The notes under the pieces: model-generated
What the model was told of the DNA's origin: nothing
Seen by the model: only the letters and a program-made list of their open reading frames with translations
The model's database searches: none
Made by a program: the position numbers and the translations under genes
Shown here: one piece after another, positions 2,143-63,969 of the stretch
Layout of the letters: the number at the start of each line of letters is the position of its first letter
Numbering within the stretch: the first letter of the stretch is position 1
Source of the DNA: Bacteroidaceae bacterium
GTDB taxonomy: Bacteria > Bacteroidota > Bacteroidia > Bacteroidales > Bacteroidaceae
Assembly (NCBI GenBank): GCA_017617335.1
Contig: JAFZWK010000034.1
Coordinates: forward strand, 6,774-70,773
Reading direction: 5' to 3'
Length of the DNA stretch: 64,000 bases

Positions 2143-3714
2143 TTAGAAAGGAACTGACCCGTCGTTATCATTTGAGTTGGGAATAAAAGGATCTGGAAGA
2201 TGGTCAGCAAGTTCGTGAGCTGAAGCTAGTTCTTCAGGAGAGGGATTGGACACAAAAGTTCCACCACCCATTCCGCTCACAAGTGTTTCACCTGGGAGAG
2301 GAATACGATCGTCTGGATCTTGGAAACGTGCCAACTCACTACGGAACTCTAACAGAATCTCTCCCACTGAACCATTACGGTGCTTGGCAATAATAAACTC
2401 TGCTTTGCCTCGCATATCACGCCCCTTCTCATCCTGATAAAGATGATAGTACTCAGGACGATGAATAAAACATACGATATCAGCATCCTGCTCGATGGCT
2501 CCAGACTCACGAAGGTCACTCAGCTGTGGACGCTTCCCTTCATATCCTTCACGTCCCTCTACACCACGGTTCAACTGACTCAGAGCAATGACAGGAATAT
2601 CAAGTTCCTTAGCTAATCCCTTGAGAGAACGGGAGATAGTGGATACTTCTTCCTGACGGCTATTGATATTCATTCCGCTGGCATTCATCAGCTGAAGGTA
2701 GTCAATCATGATACATTTGACATTATGCTCACGAACCAAACGTCGAGCCTTGGTACGCAACTCAAACGTTGACAAGCTAGGTGTATCATCCACATAGATA
2801 GGGGCATCTATCAGATAGTTGACACGTGAGTCTAATTGAGCCCACTCGTGAGGAGCCAAACGTCCACTACGGAGTTTCTCGCCAGAAATCTCACACACAT
2901 TGATCATCAAACGCTGAACGAGTTGCTCGTTACTCATTTCCAAGGAAAAGAGAGCAACAGGAATCTTAGCATCTATCGCCATCTTTTTAACCATGGAGAT
3001 AACAAACGCCGTTTTTCCCATCGCAGGTCGGGCTGCAATAATGATAAGGTCACTATTCTGCCATCCGTTTGTAATCTTGTCTAGCTTATCGAATCCTGTA
3101 CCCAAACCACTTAAGCCGTCTGTTCGCGCTGCGGCATTACGAAGATTCTCATATACCTTATCAATAACAGGATTTATCTGAGTGTAATCCTTGTTATGGT
3201 TGTTCTGAGATATTGAGAAAATCTCACTTTCAGTCTCCTGCAACAAATCAGCAACATCCTTAGAAGGATCAAAGGCACCATTCAAAACAGTACTTCCAAA
3301 AGTAATTAATTGACGGGCAATATATTTTTGTTTAATAACATTAGCGTGATAAACGATATGAGCGCTGCTGGATACCATTGCACTGAGCTGCATGATATAC
3401 GGATTGCCGCCTGCTTCCTCAAGAGATTCCATCTTCTCAAGTTCATCAGAAACAGTAATTATATCAACTGGTTTCTGCTCGATATTAAGAGTCTGGATAG
3501 CTTGATAGATAAGCTGATGACGATGATCATAGAAACTCTTAGGGTTTAGAATTTCACTAACCTGCGAGAATGCATCTTGTTCTACCATGAGAGCACCCAA
3601 AACAGCCGCCTCTGACTCCAGATTCTGAGGTTGCTTGCGTCCAAGTTGGTCTACACTGGGAACTTCCACTATCTTTGTTTTGGAAGAACGTCTTCCTCCT
3701 TTAGGTTCAGGCAT
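2143..3714 (-). CDS. dnaB: replicative DNA helicase DnaB
   Basis: Walker A AARPAMGKT, Walker B IMIDYLQLM, and the SQLNR and ESGAIEQDAD motifs. N- and C-terminal extensions as in Bacteroidales DnaB. ATG start verified. Confidence 0.95.
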   Translation of the reverse strand: MPEPKGGRRSSKTKIVEVPSVDQLGRKQPQNLESEAAVLGALMVEQDAFSQVSEILNPKSFYDHRHQLIYQAIQTLNIEQKPVDIITVSDELEKMESLEEAGGNPYIMQLSAMVSSSAHIVYHANVIKQKYIARQLITFGSTVLNGAFDPSKDVADLLQETESEIFSISQNNHNKDYTQINPVIDKVYENLRNAAARTDGLSGLGTGFDKLDKITNGWQNSDLIIIAARPAMGKTAFVISMVKKMAIDAKIPVALFSLEMSNEQLVQRLMINVCEISGEKLRSGRLAPHEWAQLDSRVNYLIDAPIYVDDTPSLSTFELRTKARRLVREHNVKCIMIDYLQLMNASGMNINSRQEEVSTISRSLKGLAKELDIPVIALSQLNRGVEGREGYEGKRPQLSDLRESGAIEQDADIVCFIHRPEYYHLYQDEKGRDMRGKAEFIIAKHRNGSVGEILLEFRSELARFQDPDDRIPLPGETLVSGMGGGTFVSNPSPEELASAHELADHLPDPFIPNSNDNDGSVPF

Positions 3715-3989: not shown

Positions 3990-5687
3990 ATGGCAACAAT
4001 TGACGATAAGAAAATCATTTTCTCGATGGTCGGCGTAAGCAAGGTCATTCAGCAGAGTCAAAAACAAGTACTGAAAAACATCTATCTGAGTTTCTTCTAT
4101 GGTGCCAAGATTGGTATCGTGGGTATGAATGGTGCAGGTAAATCTACCCTAATGAAAATCATTGCCGGTTTAGACCAGCAATACCAAGGCCATGTAGTGT
4201 GGAGTCCAGGATACAGCGTGGGATACTTGGAGCAAGAACCTTATCTCGACGATGAGAAAACGGTACTGGACATAGTAAAGGAAGGAGTTCAACCTATTGT
4301 GGATGCTTTGACAGAATACGAGGAAATCAATCAAAAATTTGGTTTGCCTGAATATTACGAGAACGAGGATAAGATGAATGCACTCTTTACCCGCCAGGGA
4401 GAATTGCAAGACATCATCGACAGTACAGATGCCTGGAATCTCGACAGTAAGTTGGAAAGGGCAATGGATGCATTGCGTTGTCCTCCTAAGGATCAACAAG
4501 TAAAGTTCCTGAGTGGTGGAGAGCGACGTCGCGTGGCATTATGTCGACTCTTGTTGCAGAAACCTGATGTGCTACTTTTAGACGAACCTACCAACCATTT
4601 GGACGCAGAAAGCATTGATTGGTTAGAGCAGCATCTAAACCAATACGAAGGAACTGTCATTGCTGTAACACATGACCGTTATTTCCTGGATGACGTGGCT
4701 GGATGGATTCTGGAACTGGATCGTGGTGAAGGAATTCCTTGGCAGGGGAACTATTCAAGTTGGCTGGAACAGAAAACAACACGCATGGCACAAGAGGAGA
4801 AAGTGGCAAGCAAACGCCGAAAGACGCTTGAGCGTGAGTTGGAATGGGTTCACATGTCTCCCAAGGCTCGTCAGGCCAAAGGTAAAGCTCGTTTGAACAG
4901 TTATGATAAAATGATGAACGAGGAGCAAAAGGAGAGAGAGGAAAAAGTGGAGATTTACATTCCCAATGGCCCTCGCTTGGGCAATAAGGTCATCGAAGCT
5001 CACGGAGTCTGCAAGGCTTATGGAGACAAGGTTTTGATCAAAAATCTCGACTTCATGTTGCCACCCAATGGCATTGTTGGTGTGATTGGACCCAACGGAG
5101 CAGGAAAAACAACTCTCTTCCGTATGATTATGGGGGTAGAGAAGCCTGATGCTGGAACTTTCGAGGTCGGCGAGACTGTAAAACTTTCATATGTGGATCA
5201 GAGCCATGAAGACATCAAGGCTGACGAGAGTGTGTATCAAGTTATCAGTCAAGGCAATGAGACGATTCGCATGGGAGGTAGGGATATCAACTGTCGAGCA
5301 TATTTGAGTCGCTTTAACTTCAGTGGGGCAGATCAGGAGAAGAAATGCGGAGTCCTTTCTGGTGGTGAACGAAATCGTCTGCATCTGGCTATGGCTTTGA
5401 AGCAAGAGGGAAATGTGCTGTTGCTTGATGAGCCTACAAATGATATCGACGTAAATACACTTCGAGCACTGGAAGAGGGTTTGGAAAACTTCGCAGGATG
5501 TGCTGTTGTCATCAGTCATGACCGTTGGTTCTTGGATCGTATATGCACTCATATCCTTGCTTACGAGGGAGATGGCAACATATTCTACTACGAAGGCTCC
5601 TACACGGATTACGAGGCCAACAAACTAAAACGCTTAGGACTGGAGGAACCGCGCCGTATCAAGTACAGGAAACTGACAGATGATTAA
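3990..5687 (+). CDS. ettA: energy-dependent translational throttle ABC-F ATPase EttA
   Basis: Two ABC cassettes (GMNGAGKST / LSGGERRR / LLLDEPTNHLD and GPNGAGKTT / LSGGERNR / LLLDEPTNDID). The N-terminus aligns by eye with E. coli EttA ([27 protein letters not shown]). Confidence 0.95.
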   Translation: MATIDDKKIIFSMVGVSKVIQQSQKQVLKNIYLSFFYGAKIGIVGMNGAGKSTLMKIIAGLDQQYQGHVVWSPGYSVGYLEQEPYLDDEKTVLDIVKEGVQPIVDALTEYEEINQKFGLPEYYENEDKMNALFTRQGELQDIIDSTDAWNLDSKLERAMDALRCPPKDQQVKFLSGGERRRVALCRLLLQKPDVLLLDEPTNHLDAESIDWLEQHLNQYEGTVIAVTHDRYFLDDVAGWILELDRGEGIPWQGNYSSWLEQKTTRMAQEEKVASKRRKTLERELEWVHMSPKARQAKGKARLNSYDKMMNEEQKEREEKVEIYIPNGPRLGNKVIEAHGVCKAYGDKVLIKNLDFMLPPNGIVGVIGPNGAGKTTLFRMIMGVEKPDAGTFEVGETVKLSYVDQSHEDIKADESVYQVISQGNETIRMGGRDINCRAYLSRFNFSGADQEKKCGVLSGGERNRLHLAMALKQEGNVLLLDEPTNDIDVNTLRALEEGLENFAGCAVVISHDRWFLDRICTHILAYEGDGNIFYYEGSYTDYEANKLKRLGLEEPRRIKYRKLTDD

Positions 5688-6563: not shown

Positions 6564-7718
6564 ATGACATTCGACAAAAATACAGAAAGGAAAGGAACAG
6601 GAAGCCTAAAGTGGGACGAAAACTCTGACATAGAATATCCACTTTGGGTTGCCGATATGGATTTCGAGGTGGCGCCTTCCATCAAGGAAGCTTTGGAACG
6701 ACGGGTTCAACATGGTATTTTCGGATACGTCATACCCACAAACGGTTTTTATGAGAGTATCATAAATTGGCACCTCAGACGACACCATGCAGCATACAAG
6801 CGAGAGTGGATAATCACCGTGCCTGGTGTTGTGCCTGCCATAAGTAGTATCCTTCGTGCGCTGACAAAACCAGGTGATGGCGTACTGACTCTGTCACCAG
6901 TATACAACTGTTTCTACAGCAGCATCCGTAACCTTCAGTGCAGAGCCGAAGAATCCGCTCTGCTCCAGGTGGGCGACACCTATACGATAGACTTCGAGGA
7001 CTTGAAGAGTCGAGCCGAGAAAGCAGACACAAAGGTATTGTTGCTTTGCTCACCACACAATCCCTCAGGAAGAGTCTGGACTAAAGAGGAACTTCAAAAT
7101 ATTGGCGATATATGCTTGAAAAACAACGTATTTGTTGTTTCCGATGAAATACATTGCGAACTTATCATGCCAGGCCGCGAATTCGTATCGTATGCCACTT
7201 TGGGTGAAGCCTATACACAGCAAGCATGTATCTGCACGAGTGCAAGCAAAAGTTTCAACATAGCAGGATTGCAGAATGCCCAGATTGTTTGTTCCAATGA
7301 AAAATATCGTAAACTTATTGATCGTGCGGTCAACATTCACGAGGTGTGTGACGTTAATCCCTTCGGCATCGTGGCTACTGAGGCAGCCTACAATGGTGGA
7401 GAAGAATGGCTGGAGGAACTCTGTCGATACATCTGGAAGAACTATCAGGATGCTAAGGATTACATCGAGCGGGAGATCCCTAAGCTAAAGGTCATCAAGC
7501 TGGAAGGGACCTATCTGATGTGGGTTGACATTCGTGCACTCAACATCTCGGACAGTACGTTCTGCGAGGGACTGCGTGCAAAAGAAAGCGTATGGCTGGC
7601 TGAAGGCTCTCATTACGGAAAGGGAGGCGAAGGGTTTGTTCGCATCAACTTAGCCACACAGCACCAAAACGTCATGATTGCCCTCAAGAAACTGAAGCAT
7701 TATATTGACTCCCTCTGA
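6564..7718 (+). CDS. PLP-dependent C-S lyase (MalY/PatB-type cystathionine beta-lyase, aminotransferase class I/II)
   Basis: 384 aa. N-terminal RKGTGSLKWD, CSPHNPSGRVW and SASKSFNIAG (PLP lysine) are typical of the MalY/PatB family. Confidence 0.85.
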   Translation: MTFDKNTERKGTGSLKWDENSDIEYPLWVADMDFEVAPSIKEALERRVQHGIFGYVIPTNGFYESIINWHLRRHHAAYKREWIITVPGVVPAISSILRALTKPGDGVLTLSPVYNCFYSSIRNLQCRAEESALLQVGDTYTIDFEDLKSRAEKADTKVLLLCSPHNPSGRVWTKEELQNIGDICLKNNVFVVSDEIHCELIMPGREFVSYATLGEAYTQQACICTSASKSFNIAGLQNAQIVCSNEKYRKLIDRAVNIHEVCDVNPFGIVATEAAYNGGEEWLEELCRYIWKNYQDAKDYIEREIPKLKVIKLEGTYLMWVDIRALNISDSTFCEGLRAKESVWLAEGSHYGKGGEGFVRINLATQHQNVMIALKKLKHYIDSL

Positions 7719-9148
7719 TGTCATACACAAAAAACAAGGATCGGCTGCTTTCCCAAATACGCGATGGAGTGAAGATGCTTCCTCGCGACCAGTTAGCACT
7801 TGCTGCCATGCTGAGTGTGCCCTCAATGCTGGCTCAGCTAGTCCACATAATGATGCAGTATATCGATGCCAGCATGGTGGGAAGCTTAGGGGCAGAAGCA
7901 AGCGCAAGCATTGGACTCGTGAGCACCACAATCTGGCTCTTCGGCAGTCTGGGAAGTGCAGCAGGAGTTGGATTCTACGTGCAGGTGGCTCACCGCATAG
8001 GAGCTGGAGAGTGGACAGAAGCTCGACAAATCCTGAGGCAAAGCTTCTTGGCATGCATGATTTTTGCATTCACGCTTACAGCCATCGGACTGGGTATCTG
8101 TTCATTCCTGCCCCAATGGCTGGGTGGAGACGAGAGCATTCAGCACGACTCATCCATCTATTTCATGATTTACGTGCTGTGCATGCCCTTCTCCATTCTG
8201 AACTCATTGACCAGCGGAATGCTTCGATGTAGCGGAAACATGCACATTCCCAGCGTTCTCAACATCTTGGCCTGTGTATTGGATGTCGTCTTCAATTTTC
8301 TACTGATTTTCCCCACTCGAACCATCTGGGGAATCACAGTGCCAGGTGCAGGATTAGGCGTGCCAGGTGCAGCCCTTGGAACCATGCTTGCCTACATAAT
8401 ATGCTCATCGACAATGTGTTACTTCGTCACTGTACAAAGCAGGGAGTTGAACCTCTTTCAGGATCAGGGAACCTTCATACCCCAATTGGATACTTTGAAA
8501 AAAGCCATCAAGATAGCTCTCCCCATGGCTGTGGAACACGTCATCCTGTGTGGCGCCCAAATCGTCAGCACAATCATCGTAGCTCCCCTAGGAACCATTG
8601 CTATCGCGGCAAACAGTTTCGGCATTACGGTGGAAGCGCTATGCTACATGCCTGGATATGGAATAGCAGATGCTGCCACGACGTTGGTAGGACAAAGCCT
8701 GGGAGCAAAACGCAGGAAACTGGCTCGCAGCTTCGGCCAGATCACCGTAAGCATGGGCATAACCATCATGACAATCATGGGAGTGATAATGTTTATTGGA
8801 TCGCCTGCCCTGATGACCCTGATGACACCCGATGCAGGAGTTCAGGAACTTACTGTACAGGTACTCCGTATTGAGGCATTTGCAGAACCCATGTTTGCAG
8901 CAAGCATCGTATGCTATGGCATCTTCGTTGGCGCAGGCGACACCATGATTCCAGCCACCATGAATCTTGCCAGTATATGGACTGTAAGAATCACCCTTGC
9001 CACCATCCTTGCAGGAACATTAGGCTTACGAGGCGTATGGATTGCAATGGCGATAGAACTCTGCTTCCGCGGCATCCTCTTCCTGATTCGCTTCCACGGC
9101 GACAATTGGATGAAGAAGATTCAGGAAGTGACCACAGAGACAGCATAA
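7718..9148 (+). CDS. MATE family efflux transporter
   Basis: 476 aa, about 12 TM segments, MATE-like N-terminal region (LALAAMLSVPSMLAQLVHIMMQYIDASMVGSLG). The start overlaps the preceding stop by 1 nt (TGATG). Confidence 0.85.
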   Translation: MSYTKNKDRLLSQIRDGVKMLPRDQLALAAMLSVPSMLAQLVHIMMQYIDASMVGSLGAEASASIGLVSTTIWLFGSLGSAAGVGFYVQVAHRIGAGEWTEARQILRQSFLACMIFAFTLTAIGLGICSFLPQWLGGDESIQHDSSIYFMIYVLCMPFSILNSLTSGMLRCSGNMHIPSVLNILACVLDVVFNFLLIFPTRTIWGITVPGAGLGVPGAALGTMLAYIICSSTMCYFVTVQSRELNLFQDQGTFIPQLDTLKKAIKIALPMAVEHVILCGAQIVSTIIVAPLGTIAIAANSFGITVEALCYMPGYGIADAATTLVGQSLGAKRRKLARSFGQITVSMGITIMTIMGVIMFIGSPALMTLMTPDAGVQELTVQVLRIEAFAEPMFAASIVCYGIFVGAGDTMIPATMNLASIWTVRITLATILAGTLGLRGVWIAMAIELCFRGILFLIRFHGDNWMKKIQEVTTETA

Positions 9149-9236
9149 TCCGTCCTTCGCAGGCTGTAATACCATGATCAAATCCAGCCACACTCCCAAG
9201 GATTATATGGCTTTTCTCATTAGAATCTCAAACATG

Positions 9237-9324
9237 ACACGTTGAAATCTCAAAGACAACACGTTGAATCGGGCAACTCAACACGTTGAGTTTGCCATCA
9301 CAACACGTTGTGTTTGATTGATTT
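9237..9324 (+). repeat. 22-bp-period tandem array A (4 units, core ACACGTTG)
   Basis: Cores start at 9237, 9259, 9281 and 9303. Units are ACACGTTGAAATCTCAAAGACA / ACACGTTGAATCGGGCAACTCA / ACACGTTGAGTTTGCCATCACA / ACACGTTGTGTTTGATTGATTT. The first core lies 89 nt after the MATE stop; the last core ends 177 nt before the ATG at 9487. Confidence 0.9.
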
Positions 9325-15884: not shown

Positions 15885-16054
15885 CAACTTTTCTTTCAAT
15901 CCACAAAATTTCTTGCAGCCTACTGAACTCTCTTTCTTCAACAAGCACCTGATTATCAGTGGAATACGATTGGAGCTCATTCTCTCGCATATCTTCGCCG
16001 TATGCAACTTTCTTGAATTCTCCCTACTTTTGAAAAAACAAATAGACACGAAAA

Positions 16055-16164
16055 ACACGTTTTTCACCCCTTTTCAACACGTTGATTCCCCCTTTTCAAC
16101 ACGTTGATTCCCTCATTTCAACACGTTGATTCCCTCATTTCAACACGTTCTTCCTTCTCACCCT
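16055..16164 (+). repeat. 22-bp-period tandem array B (5 units)
   Basis: Cores start at 16055 (ACACGTTT), 16077, 16099, 16121 (ACACGTTG) and 16143 (ACACGTTC). The central unit is ACACGTTGATTCCCTCATTTCA. It lies in the divergent GH51/GH29 intergenic region. Confidence 0.9.
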
Positions 16165-20810: not shown

Positions 20811-20841
20811 GCGTATCCTTACATTTTACTTCTCCAAGTCA

Positions 20842-20929
20842 ACACGTTGAAAGTGCGGACACAACACGTTAACTTTGCAATCTCAACACGTTAACTTTGC
20901 AATCTCAACACGTTGTCTTTTGCCTTTCA
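20842..20929 (+). repeat. 22-bp-period tandem array C (4 units)
   Basis: Cores start at 20842 (ACACGTTG), 20864 and 20886 (ACACGTTA), and 20908 (ACACGTTG). The repeated unit is ACACGTTAACTTTGCAATCTCA. It lies between convergent gene ends (20810 / 20978). Confidence 0.9.
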
Positions 20930-34447: not shown

Positions 34448-34507
34448 TAAATTTCAAAAGAAATTTACATCATACGCATATTACATTGTTTTGACTTCCA
34501 TTCGCGT

Positions 34508-34547
34508 GAGGGGTAAATCCACATCGGATTTGCCCCTCATTCTTTTT
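34508..34547 (+). terminator. rho-independent terminator of hsp20 (abuts the stop of the convergent MATE gene)
   Basis: Stem GAGGGGTAAATCC (34508-34520) / GGATTTGCCCCTC (34526-34538) with one G-U pair, loop ACATC, followed by ATTCTTTTT. Confidence 0.7.
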
Positions 34548-36365: not shown

Positions 36366-36443
36366 TGTTTTGATAGATAATAAGTTATCGGCACATAGCC
36401 CAATCTTTTTACTTCGATGCAAAATAAGCAACGTGTGGCGCAA

Positions 36444-37544: not shown

Positions 37545-37575
37545 ATTCCTTTGAAATTCAGTTAATAAAAACTCC

Positions 37576-37685
37576 ACACGTTGAAACCACAAACACAACA
37601 CGTTGAAACTGCAAACACAACACGTTGAAACTGCAAACACAACACGTTGAAACCACAAACACAACACGTTGTCTTTTGGATAAGA
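37576..37685 (+). repeat. 22-bp-period tandem array D (5 units)
   Basis: Cores start at 37576, 37598, 37620, 37642 and 37664, all ACACGTTG. Units are ACACGTTGAAAC(C/T)(A/G)CAAACACA; the terminal unit is ACACGTTGTCTTTTGGATAAGA. It lies between the C69 peptidase stop (37730) and the tlpA-like ATG (37544). Confidence 0.9.
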
Positions 37686-37729: not shown

Positions 37730-39361
37730 TTACTTCACCAGATAGCGATCACCCGTTTCAGAGACAATCTTGCGGCGGTAGTTTTCAGGATAGCCTGGGC
37801 GAATGAGAGGCTTCTGATTGCCTCCAGCCGTCTTCTGGAACTTGCCATCTTTATCGACTCGCTTCAATGCCATATCGTTGTACTTCACGATGAGGAACTG
37901 TCCCAACTTGTTCCATTCGTCCAGCATTGCCTGAGCAGTACGATGGCTGAAAGCTGACAAATACCGCCTTGCCTCTGCTTCCTCCATACCTGAAGCTTCC
38001 TTGTCGGAAATCTCCTGCAGGGAATTGTAGTCGCGCTCCAAGCGATCTCGAACGGCCTGCAATTCAGGGAAGAGGACATTGTAGCGATAATAGACCATAT
38101 TGCTCACCCAATTACATACCCAGAAGGCACTTTGGAAACTGAAATTGAACGTGTCGGCCGTCTTGACATTATAGGGCGAGGGAGCGTCTACCGTACAGCA
38201 ATAGACAGGAGTCAACGCTACCATATTTGCATCATCGTTGCCCCACCACATGACACCGCCAATATAGTCGGGCAGCCAGGAACGCATCTGGCAGACATAG
38301 ACATTGGCTGTCTGCTGAGTGGAAATAGGACGCTCATTGAAATACTTCTTTCCATCAACCTCGAAGCTTAAGGGCGTGGGGCGATACGGCATTTCCCAAG
38401 GCCCCATTCCAATATCGTGCGTGATGTCGAGCGGCGTGTTCTCGTAGTGGTCACGCATCATGTTCTTCACGTCCTGAACAGAAAGCTTACTTTTGGGTTT
38501 GAGGTAAAGAGGCATGGGATTCGCAGGATTCTCGCCCTTAGCATAAGAAAGGTAAGGCATCATGTCCTCGTCAGCCCATCGGTTGAAAAAGCTCCAGATG
38601 CGAGCCTCGCAATAACGAGCCCCTCCGAAATCAAGGGGATTGTAGGCGGCCTGAAATGAGAAATCTTCGTCGGCTCCCTGAAAATATCCTTTTTCACGAG
38701 CAAATGAGATAACATCCTTAGCATAGAGGCAATTCTCTTTGTCTTTGAGAGGGAACTGACGGATACGGCTCTGATTGGCATGACCTGAAATGCAGTCATC
38801 AGGAATGCGAACAGCAACCCAAACGGCTCCCTTGCGACCTGGTCCCTTACCTATCATCTCAAGAATCCATGCTTCATTTGGGTCGCAGATGGAGAAACTC
38901 TCTCCCTCTGACTCATAACCGTATTCACTAACAAGATTGGTCATCACGGAAATAGCCTCGCGTGCAGTTCTCGCCCGCTGTAAGGTGACATACATCAGAC
39001 TTCCGTAATCGATGAGACCCGTTAAGGTATCTGTGAGTTCTTCACGCCCTCCAAAAGTCGTCTCATGAATCGTCAGCTGATGTTCATTCATCAAACCAAT
39101 AACGCTATAAGTCTCAGGTGCTTCAGGAATCTCACCCAAGTAGTTGTTGCTCTCATAGTGATAGAGGGCCCGCATCTCACCTGGCTGGTGCTTGCCTCCA
39201 GGCAACCAATTCATAGAGCCATAAGCTCCATAATCATCACAGCTATATGAAACGATAACGCTGCCGTCCTGACTGGCTTTCTTGCCAACAATAAGGTTGG
39301 TACAAGCCATAGCTGCTAAGCCAGAGCAAACGAATAATGCTGTAAGGAGTATTTTCTTCAT
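37730..39361 (-). CDS. C69 family dipeptidase
   Basis: A signal peptide is followed directly by the nucleophile Cys (AMACTNLIVGKKASQDGS), characteristic of peptidase family C69. 543 aa. Confidence 0.85.
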   Translation of the reverse strand: MKKILLTALFVCSGLAAMACTNLIVGKKASQDGSVIVSYSCDDYGAYGSMNWLPGGKHQPGEMRALYHYESNNYLGEIPEAPETYSVIGLMNEHQLTIHETTFGGREELTDTLTGLIDYGSLMYVTLQRARTAREAISVMTNLVSEYGYESEGESFSICDPNEAWILEMIGKGPGRKGAVWVAVRIPDDCISGHANQSRIRQFPLKDKENCLYAKDVISFAREKGYFQGADEDFSFQAAYNPLDFGGARYCEARIWSFFNRWADEDMMPYLSYAKGENPANPMPLYLKPKSKLSVQDVKNMMRDHYENTPLDITHDIGMGPWEMPYRPTPLSFEVDGKKYFNERPISTQQTANVYVCQMRSWLPDYIGGVMWWGNDDANMVALTPVYCCTVDAPSPYNVKTADTFNFSFQSAFWVCNWVSNMVYYRYNVLFPELQAVRDRLERDYNSLQEISDKEASGMEEAEARRYLSAFSHRTAQAMLDEWNKLGQFLIVKYNDMALKRVDKDGKFQKTAGGNQKPLIRPGYPENYRRKIVSETGDRYLVK

Positions 39362-51011: not shown

Positions 51012-51091
51012 CTGTTTCAACGTGTTGAATCTTTCAAGTTAACGTGTTGAGTCTCCAAAGTTAACGTGTTGAGTTCTCAAAGTTAACGTGT
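51004..51091 (-). repeat. 22-bp-period tandem array E (4 units, inverted orientation)
   Basis: Plus-strand CAACGTGT/TAACGTGT at 51018, 51040, 51062 and 51084 (reverse complement ACACGTTG/ACACGTTA). The minus-strand unit is CTCAACACGTTAACTTTGAGAA. The cores span most of the 93-nt serC-serA spacer. Confidence 0.9.
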
Positions 51092-51104
51092 TGAGTTTTC
51101 TTCT

Positions 51105-52227: not shown

Positions 52228-52391
52228 CACATTTTATATAATAATGCCTAATGATTTTGAAGAAAAACAATATTTCTATGCGTAAGGTCGCTATCATGAA
52301 TAATGATAGATGCTGAAAATGAAGTATGGGATGACTCAACTGGAAACAAAAAAGAACCCACACTTTAAGAAAGCATGGATCCCTTTTTGTG

Positions 52392-52463
52392 AGGTGCGTG
52401 GCGGATTCGAACCGCCGTAGACGGTTTTGCAGACCGTTGACTAAGCCACTCATCCAACGCACC
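52392..52463 (-). tRNA. tRNA-Cys (GCA)
   Basis: Cloverleaf folded by hand on the minus strand: acceptor GGTGCGT/ACGCACC, anticodon arm ACGGT-CTGCAAA-ACCGT (anticodon GCA), T arm GGCGG-TTCGAAT-CCGCC, discriminator U. Confidence 0.9.
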
Positions 52464-52490: not shown

Positions 52491-52566
52491 CAATGATTTT
52501 TTCAAATCTCCAAACATTTTGCTCAATAAATTCTCATACTGCTCGAGAACACCTTCTCAATAAGGG

Positions 52567-52639
52567 TCGGGGTGACCCGACTCGAACGGGCGACCACCTG
52601 GTCCCAAACCAGGTGCGCTACCAACTGCGCTACACCCCG
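52567..52639 (-). tRNA. tRNA-Pro (TGG)
   Basis: Cloverleaf folded by hand on the minus strand: acceptor CGGGGTG/CACCCCG, D arm GCGC-AGTTGGTA-GCGC, anticodon arm CCTGG-TTTGGGA-CCAGG (anticodon TGG), T arm GCCCG-TTCGAGT-CGGGT, discriminator A. Confidence 0.9.
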
Positions 52640-52670
52640 ATGCTTGACAGATTCCTCTGAAAAGCGGGTG

Positions 52671-57359: not shown

Positions 57360-57388
57360 AGCCCTCTCGTCTACCTCAAAAATACCCC

Positions 57389-57542
57389 ACACGTCGAAAC
57401 CTCGAACACAACACGTTGTGTTTGCAATTTCAACACGTTGTCTTTGCGGTTTCAACACGTTGTCTTTGCGGTTTCAACACGTTGTCTTTGCGGTTTCAAC
57501 ACGTTGTCTTTTTCATCGCCACACGTGGCAAGAAATTGATGA
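57389..57542 (+). repeat. 22-bp-period tandem array F (7 units, longest)
   Basis: Cores start at 57389 (ACACGTCG), 57411, 57433, 57455, 57477, 57499 (ACACGTTG) and 57521 (ACACGTGG). Three units are identical (ACACGTTGTCTTTGCGGTTTCA). The first core lies 30 nt after the GT2 stop; the last good core ends 148 nt before the ATG at 57654. Confidence 0.9.
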
Positions 57543-63898: not shown

Positions 63899-63929
63899 CA
63901 GAAAACAAACATTAAACAATCTTTAATAA

Positions 63930-63969
63930 GTGCCTCTCTCTGGACGGATCGGAGAGGGGCACTTTTTTT
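63930..63969 (+). terminator. rho-independent terminator of the 1330-aa gene
   Basis: Stem GTGCCTCTCTC (63930-63940) / GAGAGGGGCAC (63952-63962) with one G-U pair, 11-nt loop, followed by TTTTTTT. Confidence 0.75.

Follow-up and report, generated by a model that had tools for sequence, protein, structure and literature searches.

What keeps the same short, nearly palindromic sequence repeating at intervals of exactly 22 bp in one intergenic gap after another of a bacterial chromosome, and what, if anything, reads it? The question is raised by a stretch of 64,000 nucleotides from a Bacteroidaceae bacterium (assembly GCA_017617335.1, contig JAFZWK010000034.1, positions 6,774 to 70,773 of the forward strand), referred to here as the window, which contains six arrays of tandem 22-bp units designated A to F; the longest, array F, follows a GT2 gene. 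An earlier note, made from the sequence alone, had described these arrays and listed several possible functions, among them binding of a dimeric protein. We find that the arrays belong to a dispersed family characterized by a 10-bp core (CAACACGTTG), a fixed period, a preferred position relative to genes, conservation at orthologous sites in related species, and variation in the number of units. The interpretation that we favour, tentatively and at slightly less than an even chance, is that the arrays are phased binding sites for a sequence-specific protein, maintained by selection and serving as chromosomal punctuation in the manner of the repetitive extragenic palindromes (REP) and bacterial interspersed mosaic elements (BIME).

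That the signal is real is evident from word counts. The 8-mer ACACGTTG occurs 23 times in the window compared with 1.61 expected occurrences, a number reached by none of 100 shuffled sequences, and CAACACGTTG with at most one mismatch has 35 matches compared with 3.9 expected. All 18 exact copies of the 10-mer in the window are inside the six arrays; in the sequence left after masking of the arrays, the core and its sub-words are as frequent as a Markov model predicts (3 observed and 4.1 expected for ACACGTTG). Avoidance of the core of the restriction type can be dismissed because its sub-words have the expected frequencies outside the arrays. Reading of the sequence confirmed that the 8-mers of array F start at 57389, 57411 and so on to 57521 with all intervals equal to 22 bp, the first (ACACGTCG) and the last (ACACGTGG) having one mismatch each, and Tandem Repeats Finder gives a period of 22 at all six loci. 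The numbers given in the earlier note for exact matches within the arrays (20 of ACACGTTG and 5 of ACACGTTA) are correct, and so is its observation that three arrays close with ACACGTTGTCTTTT (20908, 37664 and 57499). Solitary 8-mers are present within genes where it had listed them, and one more, at 36429-36436 (- strand), had been overlooked. The conserved core is real but extends over 10 bp rather than the 8 bp first proposed. Open reading frames (ORFs) and Pfam searches place all six arrays in non-coding DNA, and a unit length of 22 bp, not divisible by 3, rules out an encoded peptide repeat.

The family extends well beyond the window. The core with its period is found at more than 100 further loci, mostly in metagenome-assembled genomes (MAGs) of the Prevotella lineage from ruminant guts, and at least 88 loci were retrieved when one genome of each species was scanned for three cores phased at 22 bp. 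Among the latter, 45 are in the goat-omasum MAG JAFRTJ01; the uncultured Prevotellaceae MAG CAMKMK01 accounts for about two dozen of the matches listed, and the remaining listed loci belong to yak, sheep and human-gut MAGs of the Prevotella lineage and to Alloprevotella tannerae ATCC 51259 (L022), with a few unrelated chance matches. The distribution among the matches listed is patchy, with dozens of loci in single MAGs and few or none in most others, and no array was found in viral contigs. The genes of the window are those usual in Bacteroidales, and its SerC is 100% identical to a protein labelled 'MAG: Bacteroidaceae bacterium' at NCBI. Over shared genes the DNA identity of the window is 88.6% with CAMKMK01 and 82-86% with JAFRTJ01, and the window therefore represents a third species of their clade. 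From six arrays in 64 kb, or eight in 82 kb when the flanks of the window on its contig are included, one may extrapolate to perhaps a few hundred arrays per genome.

The anatomy of the family was assessed from 85 arrays, which have 3-9 units each. The ten core positions are 90-100% invariant and the spacer positions ~45-75%. The central dinucleotide of the core is AC or GT in 329 of 344 units, these being one duplex read in either direction. The spacers, 12 nt long and nearly identical within an array, follow the pattern CAACACGTTG-AAAY-NN-C-AAA-SW (A-type) or its reverse complement TSTTTG-NN-RTTT (T-type). A typical array leads from A-type units to a T-type tail and thus runs from A-rich at the 5' side to T-rich at the 3' side on both strands; many arrays finish in GTTGTCTTTT, and the point where A-type switches to T-type forms a local palindrome (AAAGACAAC-AC-GTTGTCTTT). 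The predominance of A-type or T-type units in an array depends on which of them have expanded. For example, array F is T-rich in the window but its JAFRTJ01 orthologue is A-rich, and the degenerate edge units are conserved in both. Single cores are flipped within one array, and an identical terminal unit has AC in some strains and GT in others. The possibility that the A-to-T polarity is tied to the AC strand was rejected because the polarity is unchanged by reverse complementation and the cores flip independently of it. Flanks of 60 nt on each side of 82-84 arrays showed no conservation past one degenerate unit per side. The earlier description of a real dispersed family whose cross-array conservation is confined to core and period is supported, with the amendment that the spacers are semi-conserved and have a polarity that had been missed.

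Neighbouring cores are 22 bp apart in 236 of 246 pairs and 44 bp apart in 5 of 246, the longer interval being one decayed unit between two cores, and no pair is spaced at 21 or 23 bp. Because this set of pairs was partly selected for 22 bp, we also ran a metagenome scan that accepted any spacing of 16-28 bp. Every family-type array in that scan (i.e., CAACACGTTG with an A- or T-type spacer and ~47-52% G+C) has a period of 22; many unrelated tandem repeats contain the 8-mer by chance, and two short contigs (L120 and L162) carry the 10-mer at a period of 23 with other spacers. Unrelated spacers (GGACACCTTGCA, TTTT-N4-AAAA, TTTTNNNNAAAA and TGATGTTCAATT) accompany the core and the 22-bp period in other lineages. 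The only insertion or deletion seen within an array is a 3-bp duplication in a core (CGACACGTCGTTG), which makes one 25-bp unit at about positions 490-540 of L014 (Bacteroidales MAG RUG12391).

All five window arrays that can be compared (A, C, D, E and F) are found at the orthologous position in species ~83-88% identical in DNA, and a look at such loci, which had been proposed along with the original description, shows core, period and position to be conserved. Array A has its counterpart after MatE in JAFRTJ01 (L013), with the A-to-T layout kept and GT centres. For array C, four-unit arrays follow the ADH gene in two species (L245, where ADH is 91% identical, and L242/L244, 86%); the cores are retained there and different spacers lie between them. 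Array D is found after the C69 dipeptidase gene in JAFRTJ-like species (L236-L241) with a different downstream neighbour, and there comprises 4 to 7 units depending on the strain, with AC and GT centres mixed; two thioredoxin-gene loci considered as further orthologues (L005 and L066) are paralogues and do not represent the D locus. Array E corresponds to a 3-unit array in the serC-serA gap of JAFRTJ-like species (L214-L220, 3069-3139), and array F to those in L025 (88% DNA identity) and L088 (83%), in which the edge units are conserved and the interior units replaced. In more distant Prevotella, whose SerC is 87-88% identical, the serC-serA gap lacks an array and is occupied in one lineage by a GC-rich hairpin with a T-run and in another by an unrelated sequence. 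The hairpin in L221 and L223 (3069-3162; human-gut Prevotella from Hadza and other samples) is long and GC-rich, GGGAAACCCGACAGGCGGC...GCCGCCTGCGGGTTTTCCC, is followed by T-rich/TATA-rich sequence, and looks like a terminator or attenuator.

When units are matched by position and the orientation of the core is ignored, identity between species is 181/190 (95%) in cores versus 133/228 (58%) in spacers (Fisher p = 3e-20), a difference that clearly points to purifying selection on the 10-bp core. At the same time, contigs of one species that encode identical flanking proteins differ by whole 22-bp units, which bears out the local expansion proposed earlier; at the F locus, strains with an identical GT2 protein have 3, 2 or 1 copies of the internal unit (L209-L212). 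Such unit-step changes between strains, together with the homogeneity of spacers within arrays and the degeneracy of edge units, would also be produced by a neutral process, in which a slippage-prone quasi-palindromic 22-mer that nothing reads and that serves no function spread once and has since been shaped by decay and concerted evolution. We consider this origin very improbable. Decay cannot give the observed difference between core and spacer identity, nor invariant cores beside spacers of ~50% consensus, and it leaves unexplained why 5/5 arrays are retained across species despite frequent contraction and why other lineages share the core and the period with unrelated spacers. The coordinates, make-up and surroundings of the six arrays are given in Table 1.

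Table 1. Arrays of 22-bp units in the window
Array	Positions	Strand	Cores and spacers	Surroundings
A	9235..9322	+	four cores at 9235, 9257, 9279, 9301: TGACACGTTG, then 3x CAACACGTTG; A-type spacers first, T-type later; closing tail TGTTTGATTGAT	86 nt past the stop of the MatE gene (7718-9148)
B	16053..16150	+	five cores, 16053-16141; degenerate edge units AAACACGTTT, CAACACGTTC; T-type spacers ATTCCCYCWTTT	divergent gap between arabinofuranosidase gene (-) and fucosidase gene (+) (GH51-like/fucosidase)
C	20840..20927	+	four cores at 20840, 20862, 20884, 20906; middle two CAACACGTTA; tail TCTTTTGCCTTT	begins 29 nt past the ADH stop; convergent gap (ADH/SusE-like)
D	37574..37683	+	five cores, 37574-37662; A-type spacers AAACYRCAAACA; tail TCTTTTGGATAA	58 nt past the C69 dipeptidase stop (gene at 37730-39361, - strand); other neighbour TlpA-like
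E	51018..51093	-	four cores: 3x CAACACGTTA, then CAACACGTTG	entire serC-serA gap; begins 11 nt past the serC stop, stops 6 nt short of the serA ATG
F	57387..57528	+	seven cores, 57387-57519; five perfect CAACACGTTG, two edge units with 1-2 mismatches (CCACACGTCG, CCACACGTGG); one A-type spacer, then T-type spacers (3x identical TCTTTGCGGTTT)	begins 27 nt past the GT2 gene stop; next gene phosphoesterase; array end ~95 nt upstream of a TAnnTTTG-like box (TATCTTTG, ~57622) of that gene

The arrays are unevenly distributed with respect to genes. The gene arrangements that hold them are << (20), >< (17), >> (16) and <> (9), and in comparison with array-free gaps at the same loci the occupancy is 20/53 for convergent, 39/195 for tandem and 9/55 for divergent gaps (chi-square p = 0.011). 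In tandem gaps the arrays lie nearer to the upstream stop (often 10-100 nt) than to the downstream start (mostly 120-190 nt). No bias in array orientation was found relative to the flanking genes (33 vs 29) or to the coding strand of the neighbourhood (43 vs 42), and no alignment with the upstream gene (45 vs 36). The neighbours in the window are MatE, glycoside hydrolase (GH), ADH, C69 peptidase, serC/serA and GT2 genes, and clustering of 258 ORFs within 1.5 kb of the arrays revealed no recurrent gene family beside them.

The favoured reading would have one sequence-specific DNA-binding protein recognize the core, in the simplest case as a dimer on the CAAC/GTTG half-sites and the AC.GT central step. 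We infer such a reader of duplex DNA, together with selection at the level of the host, because the core is invariant in sequence and not merely in its pairing potential, because the period is fixed while the spacers turn over, and because the arrays persist at orthologous sites despite contraction and expansion. In view of the invariance of the core and the disparity between core and spacer identity, the geometry of a dimeric protein site suggested in the earlier note stands as the most economical reading. A period of 22 bp, about two helical turns if a turn is taken as 10.5-11 bp, would put successive sites on nearly the same face of the helix, and three to seven bound units could then form one nucleoprotein block, for which the A/T-rich 12-bp linkers would need only the right length and flexibility. 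Cooperative binding would fit the finding that the 10-mer core occurs only in arrays and never alone. The blocks would mark the 3' sides of genes and convergent gaps as punctuation at the level of DNA, like REP/BIME of E. coli, a function that we propose because of the placement of arrays at gene 3' sides and in convergent gaps and only rarely in divergent promoter gaps. Such a block might act as a docking site for a protein or topoisomerase, as a roadblock or insulator between transcription units, or through weak termination. The number of units would shift fast by slippage or unequal exchange, with selection keeping at least 3-4 units per site.

The same placement could alternatively reflect an element that works in RNA, i.e., a weak bidirectional intrinsic terminator or a stabilizer of the 3' untranslated region, in which a hairpin with a U-rich stretch behind it arises on either strand from the switch point (AAAGACAAC-AC-GTTGTCTTTT) or from neighbouring cores. 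The position nearer to stops than to starts and the enrichment between convergent genes would suit such an element, and the order from A-rich to T-rich on both strands, with the frequent GTTGTCTTTT ends, is the layout of a bidirectional terminator. Arrays C, E and F begin 11-29 nt past stops with no other terminator, a related lineage has the GC-rich hairpin and T-run between serC and serA instead of an array, and a continuous 10-bp stem with G.T pairs joins neighbouring cores on the GT strand. We nevertheless judge this explanation improbable. The RNA fold energies are barely beyond those of shuffled sequences (z = -1.37, -1.24 and -2.78), the stem at the switch point has only 2-4 G-C pairs, and a scan for consensus terminators, which covered arrays A, B, C, E and F, found none in them. 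If pairing were what mattered, compensatory changes should be permitted; the core sequence is instead constant in more than 85 arrays, and with cores that never vary no covariation can arise. Moreover, the arrays are not oriented with the upstream gene, though only the GT strand folds well, and neither the multiple units nor the exact period are accounted for. The arrays disregard the direction of genes, and single cores may face either way; both features fit a reader of duplex DNA better than an RNA signal.

A locus of JAFRTJ01 (L068) also speaks against arrays as terminators, in that two canonical convergent terminators flank the array there, downstream of an hsp20-like gene. In the window the hsp20-like gene has the same terminator, a canonical intrinsic one (GAGGGGTAAATCCACATCGGATTTGCCCCTC and a T-run, 34507-34546), in a different synteny and with no array. 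This terminator shows that ordinary terminators are in use in this genome, and the earlier note was right to describe textbook terminators at array-free genes, at least for hsp20 and for the gene of 1330 amino acids (63928-63964). The two RNA-based functions it had entertained fared less well: the hairpin is weak by its fold energies, the invariance of the cores and the lack of preferred orientation, and the terminator surrogate does not hold as a general rule. Given their A-to-T polarity and T-rich tails, the arrays could still have a weak effect on termination. Insertion of arrays into a pre-existing hairpin was considered and rejected, as the joined flanks have no significant fold (z of +0.85 to -1.6).

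Promoters of Bacteroidetes have a -7 box with the consensus TAnnTTTG and a -33 element at a spacing of 19-21 nt. The units of arrays C and E contain a perfect TAACTTTG, which matches the -7 box, and those of array E point at serA from 30-50 nt upstream of its ATG, an arrangement conserved in the sister species; from its sequence, array E may have been co-opted as a serA promoter. Segments of BrickBuilt, a minisatellite of Porphyromonas gingivalis, are active as promoters in E. coli (PMC4596501). That the arrays in general are promoters or upstream elements, with T-type units as reiterated -7 boxes driving the neighbouring genes, is nonetheless highly unlikely. Most arrays carry TGTCTTTG or A-type spacers without the box, the T-orientation is toward an adjacent gene start in only 29/62, array C points into the 3' end of a convergent gene, and arrays are under-represented in the divergent gaps where promoters would be sought. 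The gap between successive TTTG elements is 14 nt, in contrast to the 19-21 nt between the -33 and -7 elements.

Two of the sub-families with other spacers have additional structure. In the yak-omasum MAG JAGCFO01, the RGIG9746 sub-family with spacer GGACACCTTGCA consists of three nearly identical elements of ~110 bp at different loci (L036, 5395-5470; L061, 5553-5628; L072, 7863-7938), each with an inverted GT-centred terminal unit and with flanks TTGTTG...CAACAA, and it looks MITE-like (MITE, miniature inverted-repeat transposable element) and recently copied. The sub-family in L113, L166, L169 and L079 (metagenome and MAG contigs) has the unit CGACACGTTG-TTTT-NNNN-AAAA in up to 7 copies, so that every core has A4 on its left and T4 on its right and each 22-bp unit is a small palindrome.

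The arrays could also be a selfish minisatellite, mobile or formerly mobile and comparable to MITE, REP or BrickBuilt, whose core is the site of a transposase, recombinase or HUH nuclease; copies would collect where insertion is least harmful and then drift by slippage, with any effect on the host incidental. Consistent with this, the family has a high copy number and a patchy taxonomic spread, its unit numbers vary in the manner of a variable number tandem repeat (VNTR), and the convergent gaps in which it is enriched are the least harmful sites. Two CAMKMK01 loci, L025 and L050, share an identical array body of ~66 bp at different sites, and the three RGIG9746 elements, with their inverted terminal units and common flanks, are nearly identical at three loci. 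The ability of the G/T-rich strand to form 10-bp core-to-core hairpins would be in keeping with movement as single-stranded DNA, and so would the orientation of arrays in JAFRTJ01, which comes in blocks (5/5, 5/5, 3/3, 2/2, 2/2 and 2/2, with three mixed pairs). Adjacent arrays on the JAFRTJ01 contigs and the window agree in orientation in 16/21 cases (one-sided p = 0.013), and in JAFRTJ01 the strand with AC cores and A-type spacers tends to be C-rich, opposing the GC skew (Mann-Whitney p = 0.015). This signal is absent outside that MAG (p = 0.88) and with a gene-strand-corrected GC3 measure (46 vs 39), and on the window contig five arrays are in + orientation, two in - and one is mixed; a replication polarity of the arrays is thus suggestive and not established. 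Retention of all five testable arrays at orthologous sites implies that the window family has not moved recently, and at these loci, 5/5 of which are filled across species, we saw neither a target-site duplication nor an empty site. Apart from the degenerate edge units the arrays lack a terminal inverted repeat (TIR), and neither a leader nor a tail is conserved; the inverted appearance of the ends in the window family comes solely from the palindromic core and the change from A-type to T-type spacers. No transposase-like neighbour recurs among the 258 ORFs (RAYT was not seen, and was not searched for exhaustively), and viral contigs hold no copies. On balance we consider a selfish origin unlikely, although it is the main rival of the favoured reading.

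Several observations weigh against phased protein-binding sites maintained by selection. Fast change in copy number, the identical bodies at L025 and L050, and the nearly identical three-locus sub-family are hallmarks of selfish repeats, the taxonomic spread among the matches listed is patchy, and a transposase or recombinase requiring the core would give equal conservation confined to the core. No candidate gene for the binding protein recurs among the ORFs clustered within 1.5 kb of the arrays. A symmetric dimer would not obviously require a non-palindromic centre, which is AC or GT and never AT or GC, and simple protein binding would not predict that both strands run from A-rich to T-rich. 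Array E is awkward for a roadblock, as it lies within the serC-serA pair 6 nt from a start codon. A more comprehensive proposal, to which we assign a low probability, is that the ruminant-gut Prevotella lineage has a genome-wide system of punctuation at gene 3' ends, composed of a dedicated DNA-binding protein and several hundred phased 22-bp arrays. In such a system the role of the blocks would be to insulate adjacent or convergent transcription units from each other or to control supercoiling, with a strength tuned by the fast change in copy number and a strand layout that may follow the direction of replication.

The core, period and location of the arrays invite comparison with known repeats. 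CRISPR arrays have repeats of 24-48 bp, unique spacers of similar length and usually cas genes; a CRISPR array is ruled out here because the conserved part is 10 bp, the 12-nt spacers are nearly identical, and no cas domains were found in the genes scanned. REPs are palindromes of ~35 bp with a 5' GTAG that alternate in orientation with variable linkers and are linked to RAYT transposases, and in E. coli REP/BIME dock gyrase, IHF and Pol I and can affect mRNA stability and termination. Similar to REP/BIME, including the IHF-binding RIP/RIB class, the present arrays are short extragenic elements of high copy number (six in 64 kb) built around an imperfect palindrome, and occur at gene 3' ends, within operons and in convergent gaps in both orientations; they differ in having a 10-bp near-palindromic core, direct repeats at a fixed 22 bp and no GTAG. 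The core fits CAA-N4-TTG, the centre of the IHF consensus WATCAANNNNTTR, with a 22-bp spacing that is too tight for IHF footprints of ~35 bp. It also loosely resembles half of parS, and CAACAC is the recognition sequence of the type IIS enzyme BsbI, whose cut 21/19 nt away would lie inside the next core.

The mycobacterial interspersed repetitive units (MIRU) of Mycobacterium tuberculosis are 46-101 bp long, oriented with the operon, and contain small ORFs coupled to the neighbouring genes. The MIRU-VNTR loci resemble the arrays as dispersed intergenic minisatellites at fixed positions with a strain-variable number of units, some of them within operons as in the case of array E, but the unit here is 22 bp with a palindromic core and no bias with respect to gene orientation. 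Phased direct repeats on which dimers bind cooperatively on one face and assemble a higher-order complex are known from the 22-bp iterons of R6K and the 20-bp ParR/parC-type repeats of pSK41. With repeats of ~20-22 bp and a conserved core, iterons and par centromeres are the closest structural analogue of the proposed binding mode; they differ in that they occur once or twice per replicon next to a rep or par gene, while here there are many chromosomal arrays next to housekeeping and glycoside-hydrolase genes.

A literature search using motif, organism and repeat terms returned BrickBuilt as the only analogue. BrickBuilt is a minisatellite within a MITE, with a 23-nt unit AGAYCATARTATCCTCTCRTRTG and 19 copies per genome, whose leader and tail segments are bounded by IS5-like TIRs (GAGACCTTTGCA) and accompanied by target-site duplications (Klein et al. 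2015, PMC4596501). Both it and the present family are found in Bacteroidales, consist of tandem 22-23-nt units without unique spacers at many strictly intergenic loci, and gain or lose whole units between strains, with some unit positions conserved and others variable. However, the BrickBuilt unit has no motif in common with the 22-bp unit here (CAACACGTTG and a 12-nt spacer) and no palindromic core with free spacers, the flanks of the present arrays are not conserved, and ~6 arrays per 64 kb compare with 19 copies per genome. The BrickBuilt TIR with up to two mismatches has 5 matches compared with 6.3 expected, never beside an array. On account of the unrelated unit and the absent leader and tail TIRs, identity with BrickBuilt is rejected. 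The TAACTGA repeats of Beggiatoaceae, like the cyanobacterial short tandemly repeated repetitive (STRR) heptamers, form abundant intergenic arrays of direct repeats (PMC4679880) and are likewise lineage-restricted; they are contiguous 7-nt units with no core and spacer, palindrome or two-turn phasing. Rfam searches of the window gave only two tRNAs at the gathering threshold, and the best match of array F (E = 0.15) is far below the family threshold. In agreement with the earlier failure to recognize the repeat, there is no catalogued match in Rfam, the searchable literature, or the BrickBuilt consensus and TIRs, and the family, whose observation is confirmed, appears to be undescribed in the libraries searched; the interpretation first attached to it is partly supported. 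The family joins dispersed intergenic repeats such as REP/BIME, MIRU and BrickBuilt; what sets it apart is a palindromic core that is conserved, a period fixed at two turns although the spacers can be replaced, purifying selection, and conservation of position.

Bacteria of the Prevotella lineage are major organisms of the gut and rumen, in which chromosome organization and the ends of transcription units are little known. If a protein reads the core, it is probably an abundant and undescribed nucleoid or transcription-boundary factor, and if the punctuation proposal is true, the arrays would represent a new chromosome-organizing system in Bacteroidota, beyond another selfish repeat; if they are selfish, they would be an unusual mobile minisatellite without recognizable ends. 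The 22-bp differences in copy number provide ready VNTR markers for strain typing in metagenomes. Short-read assemblies of these genomes can collapse or break at the arrays, which calls for caution with copy-number calls. In the metagenome scaffold L237 (~4230-4330), a run of N lies exactly over array D, which seemingly was broken or gapped in the short-read assembly.

Two further repeats share sequence with the core. A 27/28-bp ACACGTTG repeat considered as a second family was rejected, because a single homologous locus or element, unrelated to the 22-bp family, was sampled repeatedly; the repeat has alternating units CTACACGTTGATTTAGGAGTTGATGCT and is found in L089, L094, L105, L159, L205 and about 20 more metagenome loci, on contigs of low G+C (32-41%) with conserved flanks rich in microsatellite-like GTTGTTG sequence. 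The metagenome contigs L099, L108, L130, L134 and L208 contain a 20-bp tandem repeat CAACACGTTG-CAACACACTG, which shares the 10-mer and differs in period and partner. Elsewhere in the window, the - strand carries tRNA-Cys(GCA) at 52391-52463 and tRNA-Pro(TGG) at 52564-52640, which are the sole Rfam and ARAGORN matches, as well as a gene for a replicative DnaB-type helicase at 2143-3714, assigned from the Pfam families of an identical gene in L233.

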